64,000 nucleotides of DNA from Microgenomates group bacterium (GTDB lineage: Bacteria; Patescibacteriota; Microgenomatia; UBA12405). Of the stretch, positions 2,018 through 57,246 are shown piece after piece. The first letter of the stretch is position 1. Every line of letters starts with the position of its first letter. The stretch covers positions 278,994 through 342,993 of the forward strand of contig JBAQNJ010000001.1 of assembly GCA_049303675.1 (NCBI GenBank), written 5' to 3'. The position numbers and the translations under genes are program-made. A model generated the notes under the pieces. That model searched no databases, had not been told where the DNA came from, and saw nothing but the letters and a program-made list of their open reading frames with translations.

Positions 2018-4201
2018 TTAGTTTATTATTGTCGCTGGTAATTTTACAGGGTTTGTCGTCCCTTGTTCCAAGTTCACTGGACAGTCCAAACACACCCACA
2101 CACCGGTGGCGTCTTTAACAGACAGGTGGTCTTGCCATTCAATGTTCGGACTGGTATCCCCCTCTTTAAGAGTCCTATTAGTGTCTTTGTCAATCAAAAT
2201 ATTATTACGTATAGACAACCTCTCTGTTGGCATAAACTCCTTTTTGAAGTATTCATAGTGTGAATCACAGCCACCATCTGGCGGTAGTTGCCCAGTTAAG
2301 TTGCACACCGATATTTTCTGGACATCTGTTGGCATCACTTGTTTCCTGACTATTTTATCCTTCAGTAGATATGTCATGATCTTATTCCAAATTGGTGCCG
2401 CCCCCGTGGTGCCTGATACCAAATATCCCATTCGACTATTATTATTATTGCCTACCCAAACAGCAGTTACCACATCTGGTGTATAGCCAATCGTCCAGTT
2501 GTCTCTTAGATCATTAGTGGTTCCCGTTTTTACGGCCACCTCACTATGCCCCTTTATATTTAGAAGGGAGCCTCTGCCAAATACCATTCCCCTAGCTCCA
2601 TCATCACTCAATATGTCAGTGATAATAAAACTTGTCTCTCGTGATAGCACTCGTTTTCCCGGAGTTTCTGTATAAGTTTCTAGGACTTTTCCATGGCGAT
2701 CAGTTATGTTTAGAATAGTAGTTAGCTCCTGCCTTACCCCTCCACTTGCCAAAACTCCAAAGGCAGTATTCATCTCTGTCATCATCACTTCGCCTCCTCC
2801 CAGTGTTAAGGACAGTCCATATTTCGATGGATCAGCATAAGTACTAATTCCCATGGCCGATGCCGATGCTACAAAATTTACTAGACCCACCAACTTTAGC
2901 GTTTTTACAGCGGGGATATTCAGCGAATTTCCTAGAGAATTCCTCAAACTTTGGACTCCAGTATATCTTCCTCCATAGTTTGTTGGACAATATAGTTTTT
3001 GTCCCTCGACTCTAAAGCACGTCGGGTCATCATCAAAAACTGTTGCGGCTGTGACCACCCCCATTTCAATTCCGGTGGCATAATTTAGAGGCTTGATTGA
3101 TGATCCCGGCTGTCTTAGAGCAGTGGTGACATTAAAATTTCCTTCAATATCATTGGCAAAATAATCTTTTGAACCGACCATTGCCAGCACCTGTCCATTT
3201 TTCGGATCAGTAATTAGGGCAGCTCCGTTGCTAATTTTCTGTTTTACTAGTTTAGCTGTCTCTGAGGCAATCACTTCTTGGGCATATTGTTGGATATCTC
3301 TATCGAGGGTAGTGGTAATCCTCAGCCCTCCTTCGTTCACCATTTTTGCTCCATATTTTTCAATCAGTTGTTCTTTGACATAAAACACAAAATGAGGTGC
3401 TATTATTTTGTCTTTATTCACATAATAGTTCAAAGGTTCTCTTGCCGCCTTCTCTTTTTCCTCGCCACTAATATATCCCAGTTCCTGCATTCTGGTTAGC
3501 ACCATTAACTGCCTATTTTTTGCCGCTTCAGGGTAAGCAAAAGGAGAGTACCTTGTCGGCGAACCAGGTAGACCAGCCAATAATGCCATCTCTGCCAAGG
3601 TTAAGTCTTTGACCTCCTTGTTAAAGATCCCCTTGGCAGCTGCCTTCACCCCCCAGAGTGTTCCTCCGTATGGTGTTTGGTTAAAATACATCTCCAATAT
3701 CTGGTTCTTACTATATAGTATCTCAGTTACTACCGTCAAAATAGCCTCTTTTATTTTTCTGGTCCATGTCCTTTCTCGGGTCAACAGGGCGTTCTTGACT
3801 AATTGTTGGGTTAGGGTCGATCCTCCTTGAAGCCGTTTTTGAAAGACTGTCCTGTACAGACCTCTCATAATACCTTTTATATCAAAACCGCTGTGGCTAT
3901 AAAAATTAGCATCTTCTATCGCCATTGTTGCTTTTATCAAGTTAATCGGTATTTGGTCAAATCCAATAATATTTCTTTTTTTATCCGTATATATTTCATA
4001 AATTAGTTTTCCATTTCTGTCGTATATTTCCGAATTTTCAGGGTAAGTGTCAGAACTCAACTTTGTCGGATTGGGCATATCCCGCAGCACATAACCTAAT
4101 CCCAACACAATTATTAGCAATATACCCCCCGATACTATTAGTCCTTTATTCCTAATAGTTCCAGGTAAAACGAGTTTTTTCTTGATTTTTGTTCCAATCA
4201 T
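2018..4201 (-). CDS. Class A penicillin-binding protein (transglycosylase + transpeptidase)
   Basis: N-terminal TM segment. GT51 motifs EDANFYSHSGFD and GGSTLTQQLVKN; SxxK motif PGSSIKP; KTG motif KTGTTND. Confidence 0.9.
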   Translation of the reverse strand: MIGTKIKKKLVLPGTIRNKGLIVSGGILLIIVLGLGYVLRDMPNPTKLSSDTYPENSEIYDRNGKLIYEIYTDKKRNIIGFDQIPINLIKATMAIEDANFYSHSGFDIKGIMRGLYRTVFQKRLQGGSTLTQQLVKNALLTRERTWTRKIKEAILTVVTEILYSKNQILEMYFNQTPYGGTLWGVKAAAKGIFNKEVKDLTLAEMALLAGLPGSPTRYSPFAYPEAAKNRQLMVLTRMQELGYISGEEKEKAAREPLNYYVNKDKIIAPHFVFYVKEQLIEKYGAKMVNEGGLRITTTLDRDIQQYAQEVIASETAKLVKQKISNGAALITDPKNGQVLAMVGSKDYFANDIEGNFNVTTALRQPGSSIKPLNYATGIEMGVVTAATVFDDDPTCFRVEGQKLYCPTNYGGRYTGVQSLRNSLGNSLNIPAVKTLKLVGLVNFVASASAMGISTYADPSKYGLSLTLGGGEVMMTEMNTAFGVLASGGVRQELTTILNITDRHGKVLETYTETPGKRVLSRETSFIITDILSDDGARGMVFGRGSLLNIKGHSEVAVKTGTTNDLRDNWTIGYTPDVVTAVWVGNNNNSRMGYLVSGTTGAAPIWNKIMTYLLKDKIVRKQVMPTDVQKISVCNLTGQLPPDGGCDSHYEYFKKEFMPTERLSIRNNILIDKDTNRTLKEGDTSPNIEWQDHLSVKDATGVWVCLDCPVNLEQGTTNPVKLPATIIN

Positions 4202-4781: not shown

Positions 4782-5541
4782 CTGGATGGAAAAAAGCCCT
4801 CTTTAGATCCACTTGTCCATTCTTAATTTTATTTTTCATGTACAATTTTTGCGGCCAGTAGACCAGCCAATTTATAAAGTTTAAAAATATTGTCTCATTT
4901 CTTTGTTTTGACTTTTTACTTTTTACTTTTGACTTTCGACTATATGGCGTCGCCACATATCTCCCAATCCACTTATTTTCCCTTATAAATTTCTTATATA
5001 TGCCACTTCTGTCTAGTACCGGTACCATCAATATTGAATCCATGGCATTTTTCAAGTTTTGCCTTTTTTGAGGTATTTCCAGCACGTCCTCTTCTAGCCA
5101 CAAATTAAAACAGAATTCATCACCCTTTTCGTTTTTGCCATACTTTCTATGGGGGATACCTCTTAATACCACAAATATTCTCAGCCACAATCTTGTCACC
5201 CATAGGCGGTTTTGTCTGGTGACAATCATCAAATCTATGTCGTCATCGACTTTTGGGTAGCCCGCCGCTACCGAGCCAGTTATGCCAACCAACAAAATAT
5301 TAGGGAAAAACTTTTCAATTAGTTTTACCACCTCCTTTGTTTTTACTATTTTATTATTCTTATTTTTAATTTTTAATTCGTAATTATTAATTCGTAATTT
5401 TTCCAATGCTCTATTTATGAGTTTTTCATTAAATACTGCCCCAGAAATCAAACGTTCCTTTATCACCCGTTTACTATATTCCACCCCATATTTTCTACCG
5501 TATTCTCTAGTTTTATTAATTGCCTCGTTTAATTGGTCCAC
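4765..5541 (-). CDS. Nucleotidyltransferase-fold protein
   Basis: Minimal NTase signature GITGSVAAGYPKVDDDIDLMIV (G-S ... DxD). GTG start 5 nt after a TAGAAT -10 box. Confidence 0.55.
   Translation of the reverse strand: MDQLNEAINKTREYGRKYGVEYSKRVIKERLISGAVFNEKLINRALEKLRINNYELKIKNKNNKIVKTKEVVKLIEKFFPNILLVGITGSVAAGYPKVDDDIDLMIVTRQNRLWVTRLWLRIFVVLRGIPHRKYGKNEKGDEFCFNLWLEEDVLEIPQKRQNLKNAMDSILMVPVLDRSGIYKKFIRENKWIGRYVATPYSRKSKVKSKKSKQRNETIFLNFINWLVYWPQKLYMKNKIKNGQVDLKRAFFHPDDKIG
4906..4940 (+). repeat. Tandem heptamer array TTTTGAC TTTTTAC TTTTTAC TTTTGAC TTTCGAC
   Basis: Read directly. Translated on the opposite strand as the KSKVKSKKSK tail region of the NTase-fold ORF. Confidence 0.85.
5367..5401 (+). 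repeat. Tandem heptamer array TAATTTT TAATTCG TAATTAT TAATTCG TAATTTT
   Basis: Read directly. Lies in the NTase-fold ORF (peptide LRINNYELKIKNKN). Confidence 0.8.
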
Positions 5542-7080: not shown

Positions 7081-7093
7081 GCTAAAATATTTT

Positions 7094-8545
7094 ATGGTCA
7101 AGGTTTTTATACACAAGAACCGTTTTTTTATTATTCTATTTTTAATTTTTGTTTTATTACGTTTACCTTCTCTTTTTGAACCATATTGGTATGGCGATGA
7201 GGGGATTTATCTGGTACTAGGTCAAGCCATCCGTAGAGGTCTTGTTCTCTATACCCAAATTCACGATAACAAACCACCCACTCTCTATTACCTCGCTGCC
7301 CTTGCCCAGACAGTTTTTGGTTTTCGGCTTCTGTTGGCCCTATTCATGGCCGGAGCTTACTATTATTTTTATTTATTATCCAATAAATTATTGTCCTCAA
7401 AACTTTCTCAAGTTTCTTGTTTCTTGTTTCTTGTTTTAACTTCCATTCCCCTAATCGAAGGTAATATCGCCAATGCCGAGGTCTTTATGCTCCTCCCCAC
7501 TATTGCCGGTATATATTATTTTCTCTATTCCCATTCTAGTTTCAAATTTCTAGTTTCAGGCCTTTTACTTGGTTTCGCTTTCACCATCAAAATTCCAGTA
7601 GTAGTCGAATTTGGTTTTCTTGGTCTCTGGCTATTGATAAACAATAAAAATAATATCTACTCTACTCTAAAAAATTTATTCTTCTTCTCTCTTGGTTTCA
7701 TTTTTCCTTTTACCCTATACTTTATTTATTTTTATTTTAAGGGGGCTTTATCAGATTTTGTCTTCGCCTCAATTCTCCAAAATTTTGGCTATCTATCATC
7801 ATGGCAAACAGGCACTCACTCTGGCACGGCCACCAATAGTGGGTTGATAATCAGAGCCGTTACTCTGCTTGTTTTTTGGGGCACCACTTATTATCTGTAT
7901 TTAAAAAAATATCTCACCAAAAACACTTACCTTATTTTATTTTGGTTTTCTGCCACCATTTTTGGTGCACTTTTATCTGCCCGCCCATATCCTCACTATT
8001 TGATTCAGGTCACTCCGCCTCTCTGTCTGTTGATTCTCGCTATTTTTGATTCCAAGTTACATCCAAAAATTCGCTACTTTATTTTATTTTTGTGTTTTGT
8101 GTTTTGTGTTTTGATTTTTAGATTTAAATTCTATGCCTATCCCGTCTTTTCCTATTATAAAAACTATTATTCCCATCTCACCAGTCTAAGCTCACGCAGT
8201 TATCGAAATTATTTTGGATCCCGAGTTGACGATACCTACCAAATTTCCCAATACCTAAAAGACAATACCAGTCCTAACGACAAAATATTTGTTTGGGCCG
8301 ACGAACCCTATATTTATGCTCTCTCTTCTCGACTGCCAGTCGGCCGATTTACGGTTGCCTATCATATAGTCGACTTCAACCAGTACCTGCCCACATACAA
8401 CCAATTAATTGTTGATTTTCCCAAAGTAATTGTTACTTTTCCAATGAATAATCGACCCTATCCCGAACTCGAGAGATTACTAAAACTTTACTATCATCCC
8501 GATGCCAGCATCGGTGACTCAACCATATATTTTCGTACAGATTAA
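7094..8545 (+). CDS. GT39/GT83 (ArnT/PMT-like) polytopic glycosyltransferase
   Basis: About 12 TM segments. N-terminal YWYGDEGIYLVLGQ...HDNKPPTLYYL loop typical of ArnT/PMT-type lipid-linked sugar transferases. Confidence 0.6.
   Translation: MVKVFIHKNRFFIILFLIFVLLRLPSLFEPYWYGDEGIYLVLGQAIRRGLVLYTQIHDNKPPTLYYLAALAQTVFGFRLLLALFMAGAYYYFYLLSNKLLSSKLSQVSCFLFLVLTSIPLIEGNIANAEVFMLLPTIAGIYYFLYSHSSFKFLVSGLLLGFAFTIKIPVVVEFGFLGLWLLINNKNNIYSTLKNLFFFSLGFIFPFTLYFIYFYFKGALSDFVFASILQNFGYLSSWQTGTHSGTATNSGLIIRAVTLLVFWGTTYYLYLKKYLTKNTYLILFWFSATIFGALLSARPYPHYLIQVTPPLCLLILAIFDSKLHPKIRYFILFLCFVFCVLIFRFKFYAYPVFSYYKNYYSHLTSLSSRSYRNYFGSRVDDTYQISQYLKDNTSPNDKIFVWADEPYIYALSSRLPVGRFTVAYHIVDFNQYLPTYNQLIVDFPKVIVTFPMNNRPYPELERLLKLYYHPDASIGDSTIYFRTD
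7413..7433 (+). repeat. Tandem heptamer (TTTCTTG)x3, 21 nt
   Basis: Exact triplication read directly. Translated as CFLFLVL in a TM segment. Confidence 0.9.
8088..8108 (+). repeat. Tandem heptamer (TTTTGTG)x3, 21 nt
   Basis: Exact triplication read directly. Translated as LCFVFCVL in a TM segment. Confidence 0.9.
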
Positions 8546-8928: not shown

Positions 8929-9984
8929 ATGATAAATACTTTTTATTTTTCATTACTTACCTCCTTTATTATTGTACTTATTCTGACACCTGTCATTCGA
9001 AACTATTTTATTTCCAAATCATTTATCGAAGACCCTTTGGAAAAACAGGCTAAAACCAACAATGCTACAGCTACCACCAAGTTACCTCGGGGAGGTGGAC
9101 TATCTATCTTTTTGGGGATTTTTTTATCACTTATTATCTTTCTTCCTCTCGACAAACATTTAATCGGCATTATCCTAGCACTTTGCCTCACTTTGTTAGT
9201 CGGTGTCTGGGACGATATCCACGATGTCAGTCCTAAAATCAGATTGTTTACCAATCTATTGGCAGCCGTAATTGTTGTTTCCTCTGGCGTTGGTATTGCC
9301 TATATTTCCAATCCATTTGGCGGAATAATTGACTTATCGTTTTTACAGTACACGTTCGATTTCTTTGGTACCCATAGTATCTGGATTCTCTCCGACATCC
9401 TCGCTATCATTTGGATAGTCTGGTGCATGAATATCACCGGCTGGTCTGGGGGAGTTGAAGGACAACTCCCAGGGTTTGTCGGTATCTCCGCCTTGTTTAT
9501 TGGTTTTGTCGGACTCAAGTATTCACAGGATATCTCCCAATGGCCGCTAATAATATTTTCTGCCATTGTCACCGGATCATATTTTGGATTTTTGCCCTAC
9601 AACTTTCATCCCCAATCAATCATGATTGGTTATAGTGGTAAAAGTATTGCTGGACTATCTCTGGCCATTCTGTCCATCCTCTCAGGGGCCAAACTAGCCA
9701 CTCTTTTTTTACTAATGGCCATTCCTATGTTGGATGCTATATTTGTAATTGTTCGCCGCTTTATTCAAAGGAAGTCCCTCGTCAGATCAGATGGTCAGCA
9801 TCTCCATCATCAATTACTCAAGTTGGGATGGAGTAGCCAAAAAATAGCTATTTTCTATTGGGCAGTTAGTTTATTTATGGGAATTATTACACTCTATCTC
9901 AATACCCAGCAAAAAATAATTGTTAGTCTTTTTATTTTAATTATCTTCTCTTTTTCACTGGCTACAATATCTCGGCGTATTTAG
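8929..9984 (+). CDS. Glycosyltransferase family 4 (MraY/WecA-type polyprenyl-phosphate sugar-1-phosphate transferase)
   Basis: Polytopic protein with VGVWDDIHDVSPKIRL (DD motif) and NITGWSGGVEG loops characteristic of the MraY/WecA family. Confidence 0.75.
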   Translation: MINTFYFSLLTSFIIVLILTPVIRNYFISKSFIEDPLEKQAKTNNATATTKLPRGGGLSIFLGIFLSLIIFLPLDKHLIGIILALCLTLLVGVWDDIHDVSPKIRLFTNLLAAVIVVSSGVGIAYISNPFGGIIDLSFLQYTFDFFGTHSIWILSDILAIIWIVWCMNITGWSGGVEGQLPGFVGISALFIGFVGLKYSQDISQWPLIIFSAIVTGSYFGFLPYNFHPQSIMIGYSGKSIAGLSLAILSILSGAKLATLFLLMAIPMLDAIFVIVRRFIQRKSLVRSDGQHLHHQLLKLGWSSQKIAIFYWAVSLFMGIITLYLNTQQKIIVSLFILIIFSFSLATISRRI

Positions 9985-13270: not shown

Positions 13271-13298
13271 ACTGTTAACTGTTCACTGATAACTATTT
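13271..13298 (+). repeat. Tandem heptamer array ACTGTTA ACTGTTC ACTGATA ACTATTT
   Basis: Read directly. Intergenic between the rpe-like gene and gap, overlapping the gap stop codon. Confidence 0.8.
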
Positions 13299-14375: not shown

Positions 14376-15434
14376 TTATTCCCATGCTACTAATTTTCCT
14401 TTTGTCAACAGTTCCAACATCATTCCACCACCAGAAGCTATCAAATCAATTTTATCCTTCATTCCCAAATTCTCAATCGATGCAGTTGTATCACCACCAG
14501 CAATTATCTTATAAGCATTTGATTCAGCCACAGCGACAGCTATCTCTTCTGTCCCTTTTTTACAATCTTCTTTTTCGAACCATCCCATCGCTCCCGCCCA
14601 GACTATCATCTTTGATTCACTAATTACTTTTTTAAATTCTTCAATATCCTCCTCGCTCAAATCAAACGTGTCCTCCCTCAACTTAGCAATTTTTATTTTT
14701 CCACTATTCACTGTTAACTGTTCACTATTAACTAAAAGCGGTAATTTACCGCCAATAAGTATGTTATCAGCGATCTTGAGGATTTCAGCAATGTGGTCCA
14801 GTTTGTCTTCCTTTGCTCCCCCTAAAATAATGGTCAAGGGACTAGTCTTTTCCTCCACCACTTTCATTATTTTATTTACCTCTTCAATAAACGCCAGTCC
14901 ATAAAATCCAGGCATCTCTTTATACAACATGTTAGACCTTTCTCTTCGGTGGGACACCGCTAGGGCATCATTCACAAAAAATTGACAAATTTCCACCAAG
15001 TTTTTCAAAAAATCACTGTCATTATTTTCTTCACCCTTCCAAAAACGTAAATTTTCCAAAAACACAATCTGATTTTTAGATATCGCCATATCTAATTTTT
15101 CAAAATTACCCACATCTTCCACAAAAATACTCTCAATCATATTTTCGCCATTTGGTTCAAGTAGCGTCATCAACTCCAAGTAGACAGGTCTAAGTGATAA
15201 CTTTGGATCATAGCCATCAGGCTTGCCCGCCGTAGCCTTGGCGTAGGTGGGTCTACCTAGTTTTCCCACAATCACTATCTTACATTTTTTATCCATCAGT
15301 AACCTTATCGTTGGAATTGACTTAGACAACCTAGCATTGTCCCTCACCATCCCCTCCATCATAGGCACGTCCAAGTCTAGTTTTAGAATTACTTTTGTTT
15401 CTGGTAATATTTCCTCAACCGATCTCAGTTTCAT
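14376..15434 (-). CDS. pgk: Phosphoglycerate kinase
   Basis: LDLDVPM...RDNARL...IPTI N-terminal motifs and GGDT..A near the C-terminus. I start at Met33 of the track ORF (MKLRSVEEIL), which removes a 32-codon extension that runs back over the 3' part of rpiB and leaves a 20-nt overlap with the rpiB 3' end. Confidence 0.9.
   Translation of the reverse strand: MKLRSVEEILPETKVILKLDLDVPMMEGMVRDNARLSKSIPTIRLLMDKKCKIVIVGKLGRPTYAKATAGKPDGYDPKLSLRPVYLELMTLLEPNGENMIESIFVEDVGNFEKLDMAISKNQIVFLENLRFWKGEENNDSDFLKNLVEICQFFVNDALAVSHRRERSNMLYKEMPGFYGLAFIEEVNKIMKVVEEKTSPLTIILGGAKEDKLDHIAEILKIADNILIGGKLPLLVNSEQLTVNSGKIKIAKLREDTFDLSEEDIEEFKKVISESKMIVWAGAMGWFEKEDCKKGTEEIAVAVAESNAYKIIAGGDTTASIENLGMKDKIDLIASGGGMMLELLTKGKLVAWE
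14703..14737 (+). repeat. Tandem heptamer array ACTATTC ACTGTTA ACTGTTC ACTATTA ACTAAAA
   Basis: Read directly. Lies inside pgk, translated as LLVNSEQLTVNSG. Confidence 0.8.
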
Positions 15435-15861
15435 ACTTTTTAATTTTATTAATTCTTCTGATATACCTCTCCTCAGATCCAAAAGTAGTTGCCAAAAACA
15501 GCGCCATAATCTTTTCGTTATCTTCCACACTTACCGAATCTGCCGACAAGCAAAGTACATTAATATCATCGTCATTTCGAGCCGCCCGCACTAGCTTCTC
15601 CGAAGTGCACAACCCAGCCCGTATTCCTTTGACCTTATTGGCCGCAATCGATGCACCAGCTCCTGAGCCACATACCAATATTCCCTTAACATTTTCCACC
15701 GCCACTTTTTCTGCCAGCTTTATGGCTATATCCGTATAATCATCATCTTTGTCGTACTCGGATGCTCCCAAATCCCTAAATTCATAATGTTCGGATTCCA
15801 ATATTTTTTTTAGTTCTTCCTTGAGTCTAAAGCCTCTATGATCGGCGCCAATATAAATCAT
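15415..15861 (-). CDS. rpiB: Ribose-5-phosphate isomerase B
   Basis: IGADHRGFRLKE and CGSGAGASIAANK motifs; 148 aa. Confidence 0.9.
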   Translation of the reverse strand: MIYIGADHRGFRLKEELKKILESEHYEFRDLGASEYDKDDDYTDIAIKLAEKVAVENVKGILVCGSGAGASIAANKVKGIRAGLCTSEKLVRAARNDDDINVLCLSADSVSVEDNEKIMALFLATTFGSEERYIRRINKIKKYETEIG

Positions 15862-24119: not shown

Positions 24120-25618
24120 TGTACTAAGAGTTTGATCGTGGCTCAGGGTAAACGCTGGCGATGTGCCTAAGACATGCAAGTCGAACGGGATTCATTATCT
24201 TCACAAAGTTTCTAATTTTAGTGATTTTGTGAAGATAGTGAGTTTAGTGGCGAACGGGTGAGTAATGAGTACGAACGTACTCTCAAGCGGAACATAGCCC
24301 ACCGAAAGGTGGAGTAATTTTCCATAGTCTCGCAAGAGTAAAGATGCAAATCACTTGAGAAGCGGCGTACTTGCCACCAGCTAGTTGGTAGGGTAACGGC
24401 CTACCAAGGCTATAACGGCTAACGGCTCTTAGCGGAGAGTCCGTCACAATGGGACTGAGACACGGCCCATACTTCTACGGAAGGCAGCAGTTAGGAATCT
24501 TGCGCAATGGACGAAAGTCTGACGCAGCGACATCGCGTGAAGGATGAAGGCCCTCGGGTCGTAAACTTCTTTTATTGTGCCATGAAGGCATTTTGAATCA
24601 ACAGCTACTAACTACGTGCCAGCAGTCGCGGTAATACGTAGGCTGTAAGCGTTACCCGGTTTTATTGGGCGTAAAGCGTCTGTAGGTGGTTTTGTAAGTC
24701 TTGTTTCAAAGACCCCAGCTTAACTGGGGGCAGGGGCAGGATACTGCAAGACTAGAGTGATATCGGGGTTACTGGAATTTTTAGTGTAGGGGTAAAATCC
24801 GTGGATACTAAAAAGAACACCAAGCGCGAAGGCGGGTAACCAGGTATTTACTGACACTCAGAGACGAAAGCTAGGGTAGCCAATCAGATTAGAGACCTGA
24901 GTAGTCCTAGCTGTAAACTATGTATGTTAATTCTCTGTAATTTATTATGGGGGATGTAAGCTAACGCGTTAAACATACCGCCTGGGGAGTATAGCCGCAA
25001 GGCCGAAACTCAAACGAATTGGCGGGGAGGCGCACAACCAGTGGAGCATGTGGTTCAATTCGATACGAAGCGATGAACCTTACCTGGGTTTGAAATGTAT
25101 CTGCAAACCCCCAGAAACGGGGGAATCCTTAGAGGGTGATACACAGCTGTTGCATGGCTGTCGTCAGCTCGTGACGTGAGTTGTTCTCTTAAGTGAGGTA
25201 ACGAGCGCAACCCCCATCCGGTGTTATTGTGTCACCGGAGACTGCCTAGCATTATTTTGTTAGGAGGAAGGAGGGGACGACGTCAAGTCAGCATGATGCT
25301 TATGTCCAGGGCTACACACATCCTACAATGAGGAAGACAATGGGTCGCGAAACCGCGAGGTGGAGCCAATCCCACAAACTTCCTCTCAGTTGGGATTGCA
25401 GGCTGAAACTCGCCTGCATGAACCCGGAATTGGTAGTAATCGCGCATCAGCAGCGCGCGGTGAATACGTTCTCGCCTCTTGCACACACTGCCCGTCAAAT
25501 CAGCAAAGTTGAGGGCACCTGAAGCTTGGCCTTTGGCCGAATCAAGGTGAATTCAGCGATGAGGGTTAAGTCGTAACAAGGTATCTGTACTGGAAGGTGC
25601 AGATGGATCACCTCCTTT
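24120..25618 (+). rRNA. rrs: 16S ribosomal RNA (about 1.5 kb, no large insertion)
   Basis: AGAGTTTGATCGTGGCTCAG at 24127; GTGCCAGCAGTCGCGGTAATAC; AAGTCGTAACAAGGTA; 3' end GGATCACCTCCTTT. Confidence 0.95.
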
Positions 25619-31691: not shown

Positions 31692-32171
31692 TTGCTGGAA
31701 TTAGAGAAAAAATTGCCAAAAAACAATTTGCTAAATTATCAAATTGTTTATTTTCATCCCAAAACTTTTTTCAATAAATATATAAAAAGTTTTTGCACCC
31801 CTTCCCCCTTGTTAAAGGGGGATCGAGGGGGATTAATCATTGGTCTTGGCGATTTCTTTGGTGACATTACCAAAATCCGTCTCGAAACTATTACCCATAA
31901 TCAATATGCTCAAAACTCAATTTATCCATTTTCACCCATCAATTTAGATATTTCGCTGCCACCACTGGAAGATATTGACGAAAGAATCTTTACCGTTAGT
32001 GAACACATGGGCAAATACAATTGCAACTGGATTGTCTATTCTACCGAATTATATATCCGTCAACATGCCCCAGCCACAAAGCAATTATTTTTTCACCTGC
32101 CCCGTTCCCAAAATGCCACCATTTTAGCCTCTCAAATATACAATTTGCTCAATAATAATCAAATAATTTAG
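31692..32171 (+). CDS. Hypothetical protein (contains a REP-like repeat in frame)
   Basis: 159-aa ORF. The repeat is translated as SPLLKGDRGGL. Confidence 0.35.
   Translation: MLELEKKLPKNNLLNYQIVYFHPKTFFNKYIKSFCTPSPLLKGDRGGLIIGLGDFFGDITKIRLETITHNQYAQNSIYPFSPINLDISLPPLEDIDERIFTVSEHMGKYNCNWIVYSTELYIRQHAPATKQLFFHLPRSQNATILASQIYNLLNNNQII
31803..31834 (+). repeat. REP-like element, short form (copy A)
   Basis: TCCCCCTT-GTTA-AAGGGGGA-TCGA-GGGGGATT. Confidence 0.85.
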
Positions 32172-32175
32172 TGTT

Positions 32176-32218
32176 TTCCCCCTTTTCAAGGGGGAAGCGG
32201 CGTAGCCGAGGGGGTTTT
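32176..32218 (+). repeat. REP-like element, long two-hairpin form (copy B)
   Basis: TTCCCCCTTTTCAAGGGGGAAGCGGCGTAGCCGAGGGGGTTTT. It abuts the TGTTATAAT promoter of 32235. Confidence 0.9.
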
Positions 32219-32234
32219 GATGTTATAATTAACC

Positions 32235-33150: not shown

Positions 33151-33188
33151 CAAAGATTATCCCCCTCTTTCGTCAATATAGTTTGTAC

Positions 33189-33234
33189 TTCTCCCTTTTT
33201 CAAGGGGAGATGCGGCGAAGCCGAGAGGGGTTTT
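33189..33234 (+). repeat. REP-like element, long form (copy C)
   Basis: TTCTCCCTTTTTCAAGGGGAGATGCGGCGAAGCCGAGAGGGGTTTT. It abuts the promoter/ATG of 33250. Confidence 0.9.
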
Positions 33235-33249
33235 GTAGTATCATTAATC

Positions 33250-36155: not shown

Positions 36156-36566
36156 ATGAGGTACTTCAATCGAGATTCACTCGACTACGAGTTCAAAGAC
36201 AAGTACGAAGCAGGCCTCGTCCTCACTGGTTCTGATGCCAAATCTCTCCGGACTCAGGGAGTCCTCTTCAATGGCTCCAAAATCGAGATAATTGATGGTA
36301 TTCCTACAGTTTTCAATCTGACTATCGAGCCCTACAAGTATTCCCAAAACCAATCGATCGACACCACTCGGGAACGAAAAATCTTATTATCGCAGAGGGA
36401 AATAGCCAAGTTAATTAGTCTCCGCAATCAAAAATATATGATCATCCCCATCAGTATATTTTTGAAGCACAATTGGTTCAAAATGGAAATTGGTGTCGGC
36501 CGCAAGCTCCGCAAATACGAAAAAAGAGAAAAAATCAAAGCCAAGGATTCTCTACGTCACTCCTAA
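36156..36566 (+). CDS. smpB: SsrA-binding protein SmpB
   Basis: EFKDKYEAGLVLTGSDAKSLR...RERKILLSQREIAKL...GRKLRKYEKREKIK matches the SmpB pattern. Confidence 0.85.
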   Translation: MRYFNRDSLDYEFKDKYEAGLVLTGSDAKSLRTQGVLFNGSKIEIIDGIPTVFNLTIEPYKYSQNQSIDTTRERKILLSQREIAKLISLRNQKYMIIPISIFLKHNWFKMEIGVGRKLRKYEKREKIKAKDSLRHS

Positions 36567-39243: not shown

Positions 39244-39247
39244 CGCA

Positions 39248-39678
39248 GGAGGAGATGCTCGGTATTGAGCCGAGGTCCAAAGTGGACTATAAAAAACGTC
39301 TACAAGCTTAATTTACTTTATCCTACACTTTCAACAACTAAAGTAAACGAAAAGTGTTGAAATGTCGATTATTGAGGGCATTACCCCTCTCTTAAATCCA
39401 CGATCTAATCGAGAAGATCGGGACAGCATTCTAGTTTAATTTACACTAGCTAGTCTTCTCTAGAAAAGGGGACTAACTAATGGATGATTCTGTTTAGGCA
39501 AGAGCCCAAACAGGAGCCTTAGAAGCTAGAGCGCCTTTTACAGCGTTTGCAACTTTGGTTAAATCAACACCAAAAGTATTTTTGGCATGTTTGTTTTTGA
39601 CCCTGTTTAACGACTCAATGGATCAAAGTCGGCTTGCGGTTTTTTAAGGTACTCACCTTGTCGATGCAATACATCTCC
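39248..39678 (-). ncRNA. ssrA: tmRNA (SsrA), one-piece
   Basis: Minus strand. 5' GGAGATGTATTGCATCGACAAGG (compare E. coli GGGGCTGATTCTGGATTCGACGGG). 3' GGAC-CTCGG-CTCAATA-CCGAG-CATCTCC-TCC is a T-arm plus acceptor. Tag ORF GTT-GCAAACGCT... (resume codon 39550-39548, stop 39496-39494) encodes ANAVKGALASKAPVWALA. smpB lies 2.7 kb away. Confidence 0.75.
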
Positions 39679-42831: not shown

Positions 42832-43491
42832 CTAAATTATACCATTAAACCCACTTGCCAACTCTCGAAGTTCTTTCTCTGGATCTTTTGCCAATACGAA
42901 ATCACTCGCCGACACCACTCCAACTGCCCCCATCTTTAGGCAAACTTCTACATCAGCTTTGCTTTTGATTCCTGCTCCGGCAATTAGTTTTATTCCCTTG
43001 GCCATCTCCACCGCGTTTTTAATCATTTTTGGCTCTTCCGATGAGATTGACTTATCTTTACTGCCAATTAGACTTGGCGGTTCATACATTATCCAATCAG
43101 GCTTACCACTTGCTCCCCATTTTTCGATTTGGCCCAATGTCCCCATGCACAGGCATATTTCAAACCCATCTGGTTTCCCCTTGATTATTTTAAGCACTGT
43201 CCCTTTAGGTTTTTTGTGTTCCGAGTGGTTGACTAGTGACCCTTTTATCCCCAGCATTCTTGCCTGATCCATACTTGTCCAGCCAGTGGCCTTACCCCCA
43301 TTATATTCATCCACATTTTGTAGCCATACCTCTGCCCCTGTTTCTTGGATTATCCGTACTGCATCCAGTGCCGAGGCTACCACCACCATTCTGATTTTTG
43401 TCTCATCAGCCACTTTTTTGACAATTTTTGCCAACTTTACCGCCCCATCTCCAAAAGTTTCTTTATATATTTTAAAATTAATTAATATCAT
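42832..43491 (-). CDS. tpiA: Triosephosphate isomerase, short archaeal-type
   Basis: MILINFKIYKE, LVNHSEHK, YEPPSLIG and AGAGIKS; 219 aa as in archaeal TIMs. SD-like AAAGGA lies 5-10 nt upstream. Confidence 0.8.
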   Translation of the reverse strand: MILINFKIYKETFGDGAVKLAKIVKKVADETKIRMVVVASALDAVRIIQETGAEVWLQNVDEYNGGKATGWTSMDQARMLGIKGSLVNHSEHKKPKGTVLKIIKGKPDGFEICLCMGTLGQIEKWGASGKPDWIMYEPPSLIGSKDKSISSEEPKMIKNAVEMAKGIKLIAGAGIKSKADVEVCLKMGAVGVVSASDFVLAKDPEKELRELASGFNGII

Positions 43492-43492
43492 T
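43457..43492 (+). repeat. 36-nt direct repeat, copy 1 (covers the tpiA start codon)
   Basis: GTTTCTTTATATATTTTAAAATTAATTAATATCATT is identical to 43538-43573. Confidence 0.9.
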
Positions 43493-43537
43493 GTTTCCTT
43501 TTAACTTTATAAACTTTCAACTTTACAAACTCTTCTT

Positions 43538-43573
43538 GTTTCTTTATATATTTTAAAATTAATTAATATCATT
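43538..43573 (+). repeat. 36-nt direct repeat, copy 2 (creates a 21-codon uORF, 43572-43507 minus)
   Basis: The second copy of the tpiA 5' end gives MILINFKIYKETRRVCKVESL*, ending 15 nt before the tpiA ATG. Confidence 0.85.
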
Positions 43574-46490: not shown

Positions 46491-46497
46491 TCTTAGA

Positions 46498-46565
46498 GTG
46501 TTTAGAAGACCCTTAGGGGTTGACAACCGAGTCCGCCAAATGGTCCACGGTGCCCACTAAAACAC
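46498..46565 (+). promoter_or_regulatory. Structured metK 5' leader, candidate SAM-I/IV-like riboswitch
   Basis: Closing helix GTGTTTAG...CTAAAACAC encloses ACCC-TTA-GGGT, GACAACC, CCG...CGG and GGTGCCC (compare the SAM-I/IV core GGCAACC...GGUGCC). Followed by CCTT...AAGG around the SD. Confidence 0.35.
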
Positions 46566-46589
46566 GCCTTATCAATTAAAAGGAAAAAT

Positions 46590-47690
46590 ATGAATTATCC
46601 TCAATTTTCGTCCGAATCTGTCTGTGAAGGTCACCCCGACAAAGTCTGTGACCAAATTAGTGATGCTATCTTAGACGCTGCCTATACCCTCGACCCTATG
46701 GCTCGGGTCGCTATCGAGACTTTGGCTACGGTCAACAAATTAGTTTTAGCCGGAGAAGTTACTATTAATGGTACTCTCGATTATGCCGCTATTGCCCGCC
46801 AAAAGATCGCCGAGCTCGATTTTCTCGATTCAGTTTTAGATTTTACCGACAAATGCGACATCGAAATTGCTGTCCACACACAGTCACCCGATATTGCTCA
46901 GGGCGTCAATGCTGGTGGAGCCGGTGATCAGGGGATGATGTTTGGTTATGCTTGTCGCGAGACACCCGAACTAATGCCCCTTCCCATTTCCATGGCTCAC
47001 AAATTATGCCGTCAAATGGACGAATTACAGCGCATTCATCGTTGGATGCGCCCCGATGGCAAGTCTCAGGTTACCGTTCGTTATGATGGTCAGACTCCGG
47101 TAGCCATCGAGCGAGTTGTCTTGGCCAAGCCCATGAATTACGACCTCGCCCCTGCTGATTATTCTCACTTTTTCTATCAAAATGTCATTGTTCCAGTCTT
47201 AGCTGAATACAAGTTTGAAATCAGTGAAGACAAAATGATTCTCAATGGTACCGGTAAATGGACCATTGGTGGCCCCTCCGCCGATACTGGCGTTACTGGC
47301 CGCAAAATTGTCGTTGATACTTACGGTGGTATGGGTCGTATTGGTGGTGGTTGCTTTTCCGGCAAGGATACTACCAAGGTCGATCGCAGTGCCGCCTACG
47401 CCGCTCGCTATATTGCCAAAAATATTGTGGCTGCAGGTCTCGCCGATCGCTGCGAGGTTCAATTAGCCTATGCTATTGGTCAAGTCCTGCCTGTTGGTCA
47501 ATCTATTGAGACTTTTGGCACTGCCAAGTCAGAATTAAAGGTAATCGAAGATTTTGCATGGAAATTACTCGAATTATCGGTCGCTGGTATCAACAGTGGT
47601 CTCAATCTCCGCGTGCCAATGTATGCCAAAACCGCCCGCTATGGCCACTTTGGCCATCCCGAGTATCCATGGGAGAAGATAAAAGGCTAA
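46590..47690 (+). CDS. metK: S-adenosylmethionine synthetase
   Basis: SESVCEGHPDKVCDQISDAILDA, GAGDQGMMFGYA and DTYGG motifs. Confidence 0.95.
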   Translation: MNYPQFSSESVCEGHPDKVCDQISDAILDAAYTLDPMARVAIETLATVNKLVLAGEVTINGTLDYAAIARQKIAELDFLDSVLDFTDKCDIEIAVHTQSPDIAQGVNAGGAGDQGMMFGYACRETPELMPLPISMAHKLCRQMDELQRIHRWMRPDGKSQVTVRYDGQTPVAIERVVLAKPMNYDLAPADYSHFFYQNVIVPVLAEYKFEISEDKMILNGTGKWTIGGPSADTGVTGRKIVVDTYGGMGRIGGGCFSGKDTTKVDRSAAYAARYIAKNIVAAGLADRCEVQLAYAIGQVLPVGQSIETFGTAKSELKVIEDFAWKLLELSVAGINSGLNLRVPMYAKTARYGHFGHPEYPWEKIKG

Positions 47691-51751: not shown

Positions 51752-51782
51752 TTTTTGTAGGGGCGACGCTAGCCGTCGCCCT
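51752..51782 (+). repeat. GC-palindrome element, copy 1 (TTTTTGTAGGGGCG...GTCGCCCT)
   Basis: GGGCGACG-CTAGC-CGTCGCCC hairpin overlapping the tsaD stop. Shares its ends with 52345-52377. Confidence 0.7.
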
Positions 51783-52884
51783 AAAAGTTTAATCGTGGAT
51801 CACGGTCCAGAGTCTCGGGATCCGACCATTCTTTTCGCTTCGCCAATTCCCAGCCCACTCTTCCAATCATGGCCGCATTATCGGTATTTAGCCATATTTT
51901 CGCTGGCATATAAATTAGCAATTTCTTTTTTCTGGCTAGGGCTCTCAGTTTTTTTCGAAGCATCATATTGGCCAGTACCCCTCCCGAGGCCATTATAGTT
52001 TTTGGCTCATATTTATCAATCGCCAAATCAAATTTTCTAATCAAAGTATTGAATACCGACTCTTGAAATGTTGCCGCCAGACTAGCCAAATTTTTATTTT
52101 TTTCCTCTATTGACCAGTCTTTTATTTTATAATAAAAACTAGTTTTCAGTCCCGAAAAGCTATAGTCCAACACTTTTTTATCGGCGAGCGGTTTGGGTAA
52201 TTCAAACAAATTATTATTGGCGCCAGCTTGCATCGCCAGTCGCTCTATCACCGGCCCCCCAGGGTATCCCAAACCCAGTAATTTTGCCGCCTTATCCAAC
52301 GCTTCTCCCGCCGCATCATCCAACGTTTCCCCCACTACAGTATATTTTTGTAAGGGCGTACCCTTGTGGTCGCCCTTTTCCAAAAGTACAATCTTCGTAT
52401 GTCCTCCACTTACCGTCAGGCAAATAGCTGGCAGCTCTATCTCTCTCTCTGGCAATCCTTTACTATTTTTGACGAGGTTAGACAATATATGTCCCTCCAC
52501 ATGATTCACCGCCACCAATTTTTTATTATATTTTATCGCCAATTCACAGGCAGTTTTCACCCCTACTCCTAGAGCAATCGCCAGCCCCGGCCCTTTCGTC
52601 ACTGCAATTACATCAACAGACTTCATGTAATATTCCAATGTCTTTCTCTCCCTTGTCAAAGGGAGATGCCCCGAAGGGGAGAGGGATTGAGAACGTTTCA
52701 ATGCCGTCATTATCACCGGCAAAATTCTCGCTTGATGTGCTCTTTTCGCAATATCCGGTACCACCCCACCCCAATCTTTATGCAAATCAGTTTGCGAGGA
52801 AATTACATTACTTATCACTCGATCATTTTCCAGCACTGCCGCACAGGTATCATCACAGCTGGTTTCAATCGCCAATATTTTCAT
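51781..52884 (-). CDS. tsaD: tRNA N6-adenosine threonylcarbamoyltransferase TsaD
   Basis: ILAIETSCDDTCAAV, NHVEGH, SGGHT and DDAAGEALDK motifs. Carries two repeat-derived in-frame insertions. Confidence 0.92.
   Translation of the reverse strand: MKILAIETSCDDTCAAVLENDRVISNVISSQTDLHKDWGGVVPDIAKRAHQARILPVIMTALKRSQSLSPSGHLPLTRERKTLEYYMKSVDVIAVTKGPGLAIALGVGVKTACELAIKYNKKLVAVNHVEGHILSNLVKNSKGLPEREIELPAICLTVSGGHTKIVLLEKGDHKGTPLQKYTVVGETLDDAAGEALDKAAKLLGLGYPGGPVIERLAMQAGANNNLFELPKPLADKKVLDYSFSGLKTSFYYKIKDWSIEEKNKNLASLAATFQESVFNTLIRKFDLAIDKYEPKTIMASGGVLANMMLRKKLRALARKKKLLIYMPAKIWLNTDNAAMIGRVGWELAKRKEWSDPETLDRDPRLNF
52345..52377 (+). repeat. GC-palindrome element, copy 2 (inside tsaD)
   Basis: TTTTTGTAAGGGCGTACCCTTGTGGTCGCCCT. 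Translated on the minus strand as KGDHKGTPLQK. Confidence 0.7.
52643..52688 (+). repeat. REP-like element, long form (copy G, inside tsaD)
   Basis: TTTCTCTCCCTTGTCAAAGGGAGATGCCCCGAAGGGGAGAGGGATT. The second hairpin is CCCC-GAA-GGGG instead of CGGC-GTA-GCCG. Translated on the minus strand as QSLSPSGHLPLTRERK. Confidence 0.9.
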
Positions 52885-55615: not shown

Positions 55616-55727
55616 CGCTAGTGTCATTCCCGCGCCGTGTCAGTCTGTAGCTTTAGCGTAGGATGATAGGTGGGAATCTATTAAATTTATTTGTCCTATT
55701 CATAAATCTTAAATCGTATATCTTAAA

Positions 55728-56816
55728 TCAAAAATTTATCTCCCGTGTCGTCTCATCCACATAGCTAAAATTAATCGGTATATAGTTAGTTATTTTTTTT
55801 AATTTATTTAGGTATTCTTCACCCATATTTTCCGGCCACTCAATACAGGCAACTAGCTCTGAGCTTGTCGAAGGGAATTGTTCCAAAAATTTTATTTCCT
55901 CAAATTCATATTTATTTCCCAATCTATACAAATCAAAATGTAAAAATTTCTTGCACTGATAACTGTTCACTGATAACTGTTCACTGATTAAATATTCATT
56001 ATAAATTACAAACGTCGGGCTAGTTATTTTTTCCTTTACCCCGAGTAGTTGTCCTATCTTTCGGGAAAATACAGTCTTTCCACAACCTAGGTCTCCGCTC
56101 AATCCAAACACTAGAGGTTTTCTCTCCCTTGTTAAAGGGAGAAGCGGCGTAGCCGAGAGGGATTTGTTCAACAAAAATTCAGCAATTTTCTCCGTTTCCT
56201 TTTCCGATTTAGAAATTAGTGTTTGGGATTTCCCCACTATCAAGTCTCCCCGTCTGAGGATTTTTATCTCCGGTTCAGTGGCGTCAATTACTGTCGATGG
56301 TTTGTTCCGTGGTAATTTACCACTGTCCACCATCATATCGATCATCATCAATTTTTTCTGGGACAGAGTTTTTACAAAGCTTGCCAGTGAATAGTGGGGA
56401 GTCCGTCCCGACAGATTCGCTGACGTCGCCGTCACTGGCCCTCCCACCGCCTTCACCAGATCCATTATCCATTGGTTATCCGGTATTCGTATTCCCAATG
56501 TCCCATTTTCCGCCTCTATACCCTTGGCCACCTTATGTTTGCCCTCCGACACAATCGTAAAAGGTCCGGGTAGCAAGTTTGCATAAATATTTTCTGCATT
56601 TTCACTCAGTTTTACAAAATCTTGTGCCATTTTTTTATCTGCTACAGCTATCGATATCGCCTTCCCCGTCCATCTGTTTTTAAATGCGAGAAGTTTATCT
56701 GTTGCGCTCTGGCTTCTCGGATCTACCGCCAAAATGTACACCGTATCACTCGGGAATATTACTAGCCCACCATCTTTTATTATTCTGGCCGCCTTTTCAA
56801 TATCCTCGACTTTCAT
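55728..56816 (-). CDS. Fusion of a Sua5/YrdC (TsaC) domain and TsaE
   Basis: N-terminal half: FPSDTVYILAVD, LPGPFT, TATSANLSG, STVID, ILRRG (YrdC fold). C-terminal half: GDLGCGKTVFSRKIG, SPTF, HFDLYRL, IEWPE (TsaE). Confidence 0.8.
   Translation of the reverse strand: MKVEDIEKAARIIKDGGLVIFPSDTVYILAVDPRSQSATDKLLAFKNRWTGKAISIAVADKKMAQDFVKLSENAENIYANLLPGPFTIVSEGKHKVAKGIEAENGTLGIRIPDNQWIMDLVKAVGGPVTATSANLSGRTPHYSLASFVKTLSQKKLMMIDMMVDSGKLPRNKPSTVIDATEPEIKILRRGDLIVGKSQTLISKSEKETEKIAEFLLNKSLSATPLLPLTRERKPLVFGLSGDLGCGKTVFSRKIGQLLGVKEKITSPTFVIYNEYLISEQLSVNSYQCKKFLHFDLYRLGNKYEFEEIKFLEQFPSTSSELVACIEWPENMGEEYLNKLKKITNYIPINFSYVDETTREINF
55955..55989 (+). repeat. Tandem heptamer array ACTGATA ACTGTTC ACTGATA ACTGTTC ACTGATT
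   Basis: Read directly. Lies inside the TsaE module, translated as ISEQLSVNSYQ. Confidence 0.85.
56118..56165 (+). repeat. REP-like element, long form (copy I, inside the TsaE module)
   Basis: TTTCTCTCCCTTGTTAAAGGGAGAAGCGGCGTAGCCGAGAGGGATTT. Translated on the minus strand as SLSATPLLPLTRERKP just before the P-loop strand. Confidence 0.9.
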
Positions 56817-56832
56817 GGGGATATTCTATCAC

Positions 56833-57246
56833 TTAAGGGTTAGATTTTTGAGCTTCTTCCAATAACACCTTCGACACCCTCTCAAGTCCCCACATCTGAA
56901 TTTGATAAAGACTTACATCTGTTGTTACCGCGCCTGTTAAAAACCCTCTGTCAAATTCTTCCTTTGCTACTTCTGAGCAATGAAGGGCAAAACCAGCTAG
57001 AGCCAAATCGGGATTTAATTTATTTACTTGATCATAAATTGTCAGCGCTACTAGATCATCGTTTCCACTTTGATATTCGAGTTTCATACCAGTTTCTTGT
57101 ACTCTCAGGCTATTCACCAGATCTAAAGTAATTTCTCTAGCTGTCTCCAAACCAATTTTTTCTGGAGTAGCTTTTTCAAATTTTTCTCTCAAACCATCAT
57201 CTGTTAAAAGCCTTTGATTTAACTTGCTACTTCCTTCGTTAAACAT
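56833..57246 (-). CDS. Hypothetical protein
   Basis: 137-aa ORF. TAATAT + 7 nt + ATG. Confidence 0.35.
   Translation of the reverse strand: MFNEGSSKLNQRLLTDDGLREKFEKATPEKIGLETAREITLDLVNSLRVQETGMKLEYQSGNDDLVALTIYDQVNKLNPDLALAGFALHCSEVAKEEFDRGFLTGAVTTDVSLYQIQMWGLERVSKVLLEEAQKSNP

Follow-up and report, generated by a model that had tools for sequence, protein, structure and literature searches.

A predicted TsaC-TsaE fusion enzyme of Microgenomates bacteria with dispersed DNA repeats in two loops of its TsaE half

In the TsaBCDE pathway of N6-threonylcarbamoyladenosine (t6A) synthesis, TsaC (YrdC) and TsaE (YjeE) are stand-alone proteins. In the structure of the TsaBDE complex, ATP-bound TsaE occupies the entrance to the active site of TsaD, where it competes with tRNA, and it has been proposed that TsaE turns TsaD into a form that accepts threonylcarbamoyl-AMP (TC-AMP) from TsaC before ATP hydrolysis releases TsaE (PMC6009658). 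The transfer of TC-AMP from TsaC to TsaD and the need for the ATPase of TsaE are open questions, for which a natural fusion of the two proteins would be a single-chain system for direct testing. TobZ and HypF use covalent linkage to channel a labile adenylate (PMC6009658, PMC10484737). The t6A reviews, together with the paper on the TsaN fusion, name TsaC-HemK, Kae1-Bud32, TobZ/HypF and TsaD-TsaC-SUA5-TcdA fusions without a TsaC-TsaE fusion, and no earlier description of one was found in the t6A literature searched (most subscription journals being outside reach). As for repeats within genes, the Rickettsia palindromic elements (RPE; Ogata et al. 2000, 2002), as far as they are summarised in PMC10969869, are dispersed palindromic repeats of ~100-150 bp that lie in frame in unrelated housekeeping genes as well as between genes, and that add peptide segments compatible with the fold. 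Here, we analyze a gene that touches on both subjects. It lies in a 64,000-nt stretch of a Microgenomates group bacterium (contig JBAQNJ010000001.1, positions 278,994 to 342,993), hereafter the window, and encodes a TsaC-TsaE fusion with two repeat-derived inserts in its TsaE half. The gene and the parts of its product are the following.

55728-56816, minus strand: tsaC-tsaE fusion open reading frame (ORF), 362 amino acids (aa), ATG start, from the ORF list
56247-56783, minus strand: TsaC/YrdC domain, aa 12-190, from PF01300, TIGR00057, Foldseek and the motifs K46-x-R48 and S132-A-N134
56211-56246, minus strand: short inter-domain junction, aa 191-202, DLIVGKSQTLIS, a family-conserved consensus, with a predicted local distance difference test (pLDDT) score of 56-69 over aa 181-200
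55743-56210, minus strand: TsaE P-loop ATPase domain, aa 203-358, from PF02367, TIGR00150, phmmer and Foldseek, with the Walker A motif GDLGCGKT at 56073-56096

The profile searches recognize both halves of the ORF. The Sua5_yciO_yrdC profile (PF01300) matches aa 12-190 over profile positions 2-178 of 178, with E=7e-43 and 146.6 bits against a cut-off of 25.1, and the TsaE profile (PF02367) matches aa 203-358 over positions 2-126 of 128, with E=3.7e-26 and 92 bits against a cut-off of 26.6. The two NCBIfam equivalog families are also reached above their curated cut-offs, at 147.4 bits versus 123.2 for TC-AMP synthase (TIGR00057) and 69.2 bits versus 60.1 for TsaE (TIGR00150). A first-pass annotation of this DNA, made from the letters alone, had already proposed that one 362-aa ORF joins a YrdC-fold domain to a TsaE P-loop domain; every motif that it quoted is present, and the profiles PF01300 and PF02367, whose failure would have told against it, both find their domain. 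The TsaC half contains KNR (46-48), SANLSG (132-137) and ILRRG (186-190), and in an alignment of 120 homologues K46, S132, A133 and N134 show no variation and R48 almost none, within the KxR and SxN motifs that we take to bind substrate in the TsaC/YrdC family. The TsaE half contains GDLGCGKT (241-248), SPTF (266-269), HFDLYR (293-298) and IEWPE (325-329). In the same alignment its motifs, i.e., the Walker A GxxGxGKT, the SPT(F/Y) sensor loop, HxDxYR and the E-W switch residues, whose roles are described in PMC6009658, are invariant or nearly so.

Structural prediction points the same way. An AlphaFold2 (AF2) model of the fusion, with a mean pLDDT of 84.1, reproduces both folds. The TsaC half adopts the α/β twisted open-sheet fold by which YrdC family membership is judged and superposes on YrdC 1hru with a Foldseek template-modelling score (TMt) of 0.80 and a root-mean-square deviation (rmsd) of 2.7, and on 1k7j with a TMt of 0.75. 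The TsaE half adopts the TsaE P-loop fold, with TMt values of 0.71 for 1htw, 0.73 for 1fl9 and 0.67 for 6n9a_E, a subunit of the Thermotoga maritima complex, and phmmer relates it to Haemophilus influenzae HI0065/1htw with E=3e-10. An identical protein is already in NCBI, on a 998-kb contig of a Microgenomates metagenome-assembled genome (MAG), where it is named threonylcarbamoyl-AMP synthase only. The nearest upstream ORF (137 aa, 56833-57246, minus strand, no Pfam match) ends 17 nt before tsaC-tsaE begins, and the two may share a transcript.

The fused architecture recurs well beyond this genome. All 120 best homologues (65-78% identity, mostly from Candidatus Shapirobacteria) contain PF01300 and PF02367, and the junction consensus GDLITGxSQTLISKSEKETEKIAEF (in a variant form GDLIxGxSQTLISKSEKETEKIAEF) is kept throughout their alignment. 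We also surveyed one genome per species of the GTDB by tblastn, with scan patterns taken from the TsaC half, which biases the survey towards genomes with TsaC motifs. Full-length matches (query residues ~6-362) were obtained for L001-L044, about 40 species-level genomes of Shapirobacteria (51-73% identity) and Roizmanbacteria (39-47%), together with some MAGs whose label is wrong; the archaea and other bacteria that follow from L045 match residues ~6-190 only, i.e., the TsaC half. When 1.84 billion cluster representatives were searched with only the TsaE half as query, the best 150 matches included ~18 proteins of 340-483 aa with a C-terminal TsaE, the remainder being stand-alone proteins of ~150 aa. 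Ten of ten long matches tested contain both PF01300 and PF02367, and the named members are Roizmanbacteria. In two of these long proteins, P0132 (483 aa) and P0133 (409 aa), the TsaC match is stretched (residues 21-255 on the 178-position profile) and the TsaE match is split, a sign that the TsaC half of other lineages may have additional insert hotspots.

The single ORF might have arisen by the merging of adjacent tsaC and tsaE genes through an assembly or sequencing error, for which the one argument is that the genes for these two proteins are usually separate. This has a negligible chance of being correct: the same architecture and conserved junction appear in 120/120 of the closest homologues from independent assemblies and in about 40 species-representative genomes, and the N-terminal strand and helix of TsaE directly follow the TsaC C terminus with no in-frame stop. 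A frameshift or assembly artefact is excluded because both domains recur across independent homologues and in the TsaE-half search, and the full-length matches across Shapirobacteria and Roizmanbacteria, as called for by the proposal to survey the candidate phyla radiation (CPR), leave no room for a frameshift in a single genome. The fusion is genuine and lineage-wide in Candidatus Shapirobacteria and Roizmanbacteria (Microgenomates, CPR).

A different question is what the C-terminal module does. It occupies the position of the SUA5 domain in two-domain Sua5/TsaC2 proteins, which are the top Foldseek hits of the whole model over ~370 aligned columns, and one could imagine a cis-acting accessory of TsaC that replaces the SUA5 domain and is not a canonical TsaE, with a separate TsaE encoded elsewhere in a genome that was inspected within the 64-kb window only. 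However, the full-length alignments to Sua5/TsaC2 have an rmsd of 14-18 Å, so that only the TsaC half superposes well, while the module reaches the TsaE equivalog cut-off, keeps the SPTF sensor loop, HxDxYR and E-W, and has stand-alone TsaE proteins as its nearest relatives. In addition, phmmer with each half of the fusion found no second TsaC or TsaE among the window ORFs. An accessory role of this kind is in our view unlikely.

A canonical TsaE half makes specific predictions. From its motifs, the TsaC half is predicted to synthesize TC-AMP from threonine, bicarbonate and ATP, and the TsaE half to bind TsaB-TsaD in an ATP-dependent manner and to possess an ATPase stimulated by the complex. 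An N-terminal TsaC joined via a ~12-residue junction to a complete TsaE ATPase would then constitute one t6A enzyme. Docking of TsaE-ATP at the TsaD entrance would bring the fused TsaC there during the TsaE-bound reset step, and the labile TC-AMP might be loaded before ATP hydrolysis frees TsaC-TsaE and tRNA binds. Covalent linkage would thereby deliver TsaC to the TsaD site in each cycle, limiting the loss of the labile intermediate. The earlier statement that different steps are served by TsaC and TsaE holds only in part: the proposal that TsaE prepares TsaD for the TC-AMP of TsaC had already been made in PMC6009658, and the hand-off of TC-AMP via TsaE docking that we infer is in keeping with it.

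The TsaE half carries two inserts, each of which belongs to a repeat class that is dispersed in the window. In the alignment of 120 sequences, nearly all length variation of this half falls at the two sites that had been flagged at first pass. Site 1, between helix α1 (IAEFLLNK) and strand β1 (LVFG, leading into the P-loop), has 4-29 aa and 108 distinct peptides, and site 2, in the β2-β3 hairpin between TFVIYNEY and FLHFD, has 6-37 aa and 114 distinct peptides (n=120 for both). Loops at least 8 aa above the family minimum are found in 78/120 sequences at site 1 and in 91/120 at site 2. Both loops are thus length-hypervariable hotspots across the fusion family. The placement of the two repeats was correctly read from the motifs: the palindromic element, said to lie just before the P-loop strand, is between α1 and β1, and the heptamer array, said to lie between SPTF and HFDLYR, is in the β2-β3 hairpin. 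Both fall in loops of TsaE in the AF2 model, the palindrome-encoded peptide being the only segment with a pLDDT below 50 (aa 223-229) and the array peptide forming an extended β2-β3 hairpin with a pLDDT of ~68. Alignment to the solved H. influenzae TsaE (HI0065) shows a 9-residue gap exactly at SEQLSVNSY. Because the two loops end strands that run away from the nucleotide site, they probably face away from both the ATP site and the TsaD interface, a placement that comes from fold topology and the published interface (PMC6009658) and was not computed on coordinates.

Site 1 holds a copy of a repetitive extragenic palindrome (REP)-like element, a second copy of which interrupts the nearby tsaD.

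56115-56169, plus strand (antisense to the gene): REP-like double-hairpin element in tsaC-tsaE, encoding (K)SLSATPLLPLTRERKP, the top covariance-model match at 74.4 bits
52639-52693, plus strand (antisense to tsaD): REP copy in tsaD, encoding SLSPSGHLPLTRERKT, in the same frame and orientation as the tsaC-tsaE copy

The repeat core in tsaC-tsaE is 56119-56164 and the peptide SLSATPLLPLTRERKP is coded by 56115-56162; the copy announced at 56118-56165 is real, with peptide coordinates shifted by 3 nt. The 46-nt family has five strong copies in the window (32172, 33187, 36044, 52643 and 56119) and three weaker ones at about 31800, 48460 and 54160, with nhmmer E values from 9.5e-18 to 2e-3, where no matches are expected by chance. 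Rfam at gathering thresholds recognizes no family at any REP copy or heptamer array in the window. The element consists of two hairpins, TCTCCCTT-loop-AAGGGAGA and CGGC-GNA-GCCG, the second of which reads CCCC-GAA-GGGG in tsaD. A covariance model built from the five copies found 60 matches in 747 kb, comprising the window and the Shapirobacteria/Roizmanbacteria loci. In the resulting alignment, which is fitted to the model, 93.6% of cells are paired versus 79% in shuffles, and there are 106 double-sided changes versus 39 in shuffles, all slid controls scoring much lower. Both hairpins are kept by compensatory changes.

Two frames of the antisense strand are free of stop codons, SLSATPLLPLTRERK, which is used here in both tsaC-tsaE and tsaD, and IPLGYAASPFNKGEK; both occur among the homologues, as expected of a DNA element that lands in different phases. 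Insert peptides that look like translated hairpins include SLSATPLLPLTKGR, SAFAASPFDKREK, TLTPYPFPLTGQGEK, ISPNPSLTRGGQN and QNPPALRAPSLEKGGL, and those with a 7-residue period NYELRITNYEL, SDQLSVTSYELSVTSCQL and NFQFSKSNFQ. Of 47 REP matches, 27 lie inside long stop-to-stop ORFs, 18 of them antisense to the ORF. Most of the matches in sense orientation are at the 5' edge of the ORF, where they are probably upstream of the true start codon. Within each locus, REP orientation is uniform, and it follows the sign of the GC skew in 12/12 loci whatever the coding-strand balance. Because orientation tracks skew in this way, a link between REP and the replication strand is suggested. The skew itself is unusually strong and extends along the whole strand: it is -0.199 over window positions 1-64000 and 0.11-0.24 in absolute value in the related loci L001-L024; it is not explained by coding-strand balance and is similar to a disparity in strand composition described for another Microgenomates genome (PMC7143001).

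Two of the intergenic copies, 32168-32222 and 33183-33237, end 18 nt before the ATG of plus-strand genes at 32235 and 33250, and each is followed by TTTTG and then by a stretch rich in A/T that resembles a -10 element. They may have a function in the 5' region of these genes. A simple terminator scan did not call the intergenic copies, and a plain intrinsic terminator function was rejected on this basis; minus-strand -35-like hexamers in the REP loop, present in some copies, are inconsistent between copies.

Site 2 holds a tandem array of short units, a class of repeat that also recurs in the window.

55954-55988, minus strand: tandem array in TsaE of two alternating heptamers, ATCAGTG/AACAGTT, encoding ISEQLSVNSYQ (Tandem Repeats Finder, TRF)
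55703-55729, no strand assigned: separate heptamer array, TAAATCT x3.9, which begins immediately after the tsaC-tsaE stop codon (TRF)
14702-14734, minus strand: in-frame heptamer array in the phosphoglycerate kinase (PGK) gene (14376-15530, minus strand), encoding LLVNSEQLTVNSGK
Starts of the period-7 arrays in the window: 4906, 5362, 7412, 7534, 8082, 10837, 13265, 14339, 14702, 19492, 29563, 48511, 55703 and 55954

Period-7 arrays are in large excess, with 14 in the window versus 0.25 +/- 0.49 expected in 40 order-3 Markov simulations. The array in TsaE, first described as five heptamers at 55955-55989, is confirmed, although it lies one position lower and amounts, more exactly, to 2.5 perfect copies of a 14-nt unit (TRF, 100% match). 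It matches window arrays at 13271 and 14703, and the PGK array belongs to the same ACTGTTC/ACTGATA family and divides the PGK Pfam match in two. Arrays similar to the one after the stop codon are found at 10837 and 36101 (repeat family D4). On the plus strand, the array units are T-rich (TTTTTAC, TTTTGTG, GTTTCTT, TAAATCT and ACTGTTC), and many arrays lie just upstream or downstream of genes.

An array that is 100% perfect, with a unit of 14 nt that is not a multiple of 3, and that varies in length among orthologues (e.g., by 7 aa in P0018), could in principle be a contingency locus in which slippage by one unit frameshifts the gene and toggles the TsaE half. We consider this very unlikely. 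All 120 homologues are in frame across the site and no frameshifted variant was seen among them, 2.5 copies are short for efficient slippage, and the t6A genes are essential in most bacteria.

If the inserts are repeats that happen to lie in genes, their DNA should be found elsewhere in the same genome, and it is. With the gene masked, the DNA of each insert was compared with the rest of its locus; the window site-1 insert matched the four other REP copies at 87-96% identity. In a second locus, L005, both loops contain the same local repeat family.

7288-8433 of L005: tsaC-tsaE fusion gene
5122-5173, 7087-7111, 9398-9418 and 17926-17961 of L005: repeat copies in its flanks

Over 40 nt, the identity of the two L005 sites to copies in the flanks is 100% and 97.5%, which points to an insertion or gene conversion in the very recent past. 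For L007, the corresponding values are 97% over 36 nt at site 1 and 100% over 24 nt at site 2, and these families differ from those of the window. Other genomes fill the two loops with local repeats of their own. We compared the inserts of 40 species-level genes, from the window and 39 other loci. Of the long inserts, 7/11 at site 1 have perfect stems of 6 bp or more; at site 2, 6/20 are period-7/14 arrays and 7/20 have such stems, the arrays including Roizmanbacteria genes with quite different units. The inserts are copies of genome-wide repeat classes, not features of TsaE. Moreover, DNA identity to L001/L002 is 86% (44/51) in the REP segment, 66-70% over the remainder of the gene (binomial P about 0.006) and no more than 74-76% in the P-loop region. 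The disordered REP loop is thus better conserved as DNA than the catalytic core, which implies either constraint on the element itself or homogenization with other copies. Insertion boundaries and target-site duplications could not be read from filled versus empty orthologues, the empty sites being too diverged (65-70% protein identity). No earlier description of intragenic repeats in CPR or Microgenomates was found in the literature searched, with the same restriction on subscription journals.

These comparisons also bear on whether the inserted peptides are adaptive, for instance as new surfaces for contact that make up for a missing partner in a remodelled t6A complex of CPR. Most homologues have loops above the family minimum, the site-2 segment is modelled as an ordered β-hairpin extension, and the site-1 REP is kept between lineages whose proteins share only about 70% identity. 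Yet the peptides are very heterogeneous in sequence, in length and even in the reading frame of one element; conservation is in DNA and not in protein, and intergenic copies match; PGK, tsaD and intergenic DNA contain the identical repeat classes; and the REP peptide has a pLDDT below 50. An adaptive origin seems improbable to us, and the inserts are probably neutral.

The t6A genes might seem to attract these repeats. The tsaD gene (51781-52884, minus strand) is ~3 kb from tsaC-tsaE, and its REP insertion corresponds to a 16-aa gap relative to T. maritima TsaD; its other gaps in this alignment (6, 6 and 4 residues) match no repeat. Four repeat insertions in the t6A machinery within 5 kb had been claimed, of which three hold, two in tsaC-tsaE and one in tsaD. 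The fourth candidate, a 24-nt tandem in tsaD (52286-52333), encodes the universal GExLDDAAGEAxDKxA motif and has no gap relative to T. maritima TsaD, and is not an insertion. Specific targeting was rejected as well, since PGK contains a member of the heptamer family and many other ORFs of related genomes contain REP: the clustering reflects tolerance and local repeat density.

Together, these findings make it likely that the gene encodes a functional, bifunctional TsaC-TsaE enzyme with RPE-like passenger repeats in tolerant loops. The repeats would be largely neutral passengers that spread or are homogenized at the DNA level, surviving only in tolerant loops, in a stop-free frame and mostly antisense to the host gene, as the Rickettsia elements do. 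Several points weigh against this conclusion. The predicted template modelling score (pTM) of 0.57 leaves the relative orientation of TsaC and TsaE undefined, and with it the geometry of any channelling. TsaB was not found in the 64-kb window by phmmer of TsaD against all window ORFs. The loops are filled in most homologues, with median lengths of 13 aa (minimum 4) and 16 aa (minimum 6), and some of this length could be selected for. The counts of REP covariation were made on an alignment that had itself been fitted to the covariance model. Finally, no transposase is linked to the repeats and no target-site duplication is defined, so that mobility is deduced from distribution alone; a Pfam scan of part of the window ORFs found no transposase, and no search directed at the REP-associated tyrosine transposase (RAYT) was made.

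A bolder reading, which we put forward tentatively and consider less likely than not, is that Microgenomates genomes contain an active, replication-strand-oriented system of structured ~45-nt REPs and heptamer arrays, perhaps mobilized through single-stranded DNA, that repeatedly adds new loops to essential enzymes, and that the fusion is Rosetta-stone evidence for TsaC and TsaE. If so, the repeat system would be a CPR counterpart of the "protein-coding palindromes" of Rickettsia, writing peptide loops at the same tolerant sites, and the fusion would show TsaC and TsaE co-acting on TsaD, with TC-AMP loaded in the TsaE-bound state, which would address how the labile TC-AMP reaches TsaD in bacteria.

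Other features of the window are recorded for completeness. Its Rfam matches are, in all, a full-length 16S rRNA gene (24120-25618, plus strand), a transfer-messenger RNA (tmRNA) gene (39247-39678, minus strand), two tRNAs and a SAM-I/IV riboswitch match (46493-46599, plus strand) whose score is exactly at the gathering threshold; smpB (36156-36566, plus strand) is about 2.7 kb from the tmRNA gene. Positions 835-1590 and 3080-3832 are 70-72% identical and ~2.24 kb apart (families D2, D8 and D11), and resemble tandem paralogous genes, one of which is ORF 2018-4201. At 43457-43573, two 36-nt copies that are 100% identical lie 81 nt apart in an A/T-rich, repeat-dense intergenic region.

How does the locus compare with described systems? 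The fusion and its repeats are composed of components of known kinds, in proteins that are already in public databases. Compared with stand-alone TsaC and TsaE of the TsaBCDE pathway, the two halves reach the same family thresholds, with the same catalytic motifs and folds and with tsaD nearby, but they form one polypeptide. Sua5/TsaC2 has a similar two-domain layout, with an N-terminal TsaC and a C-terminal α/β domain, and supplies the top Foldseek hits; its whole-chain rmsd is nevertheless 14-18 Å, and the C-terminal domain here is by profile a TsaE P-loop ATPase, not SUA5. Fusions such as TobZ/HypF also tie an adenylate-forming step covalently to transfer machinery. Here, in contrast, the partner is the ATPase TsaE instead of a transferase, and channelling would need transient docking to TsaBD.

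The palindromic element has two kinds of relatives. Like the elements of the REP/REPIN-RAYT systems, it is a GC-rich, imperfect palindrome of ~35-45 nt with many, mostly intergenic copies and hairpins kept by compensatory changes. Unlike them, no inverted pairs (REPINs or bacterial interspersed mosaic elements, BIMEs) were seen among the copies, each of the 12/12 loci has one orientation, and many copies are inside genes. In-frame palindromic repeats in housekeeping proteins have been a textbook oddity of Rickettsia, whose "protein-coding palindromes" are said to be unique to that genus. An unrelated analogue in CPR means that such repeats are found in a further group of bacteria with reduced genomes, and serves as a warning that "insertions" in CPR proteins can be derived from repeats. 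The CPR case is marked by recurrent hotspots, conservation of DNA above that of the catalytic core and strict strand orientation. Relative to RPE as they are summarised in PMC10969869, the window repeats are likewise dispersed and palindromic, in frame in loops of tsaC-tsaE and tsaD and also present between genes. They differ from that description in length (~45 nt versus ~100-150 bp), in having a CPR host, in sharing no sequence and no Rfam family, in their uniform orientation tied to GC skew, in the heptamer arrays that form a second class and in the re-use of the same two loops of one protein across genomes. Because length, sequence and host all depart from what is summarised there, the window REP is an analogue of RPE and not a member of that family.

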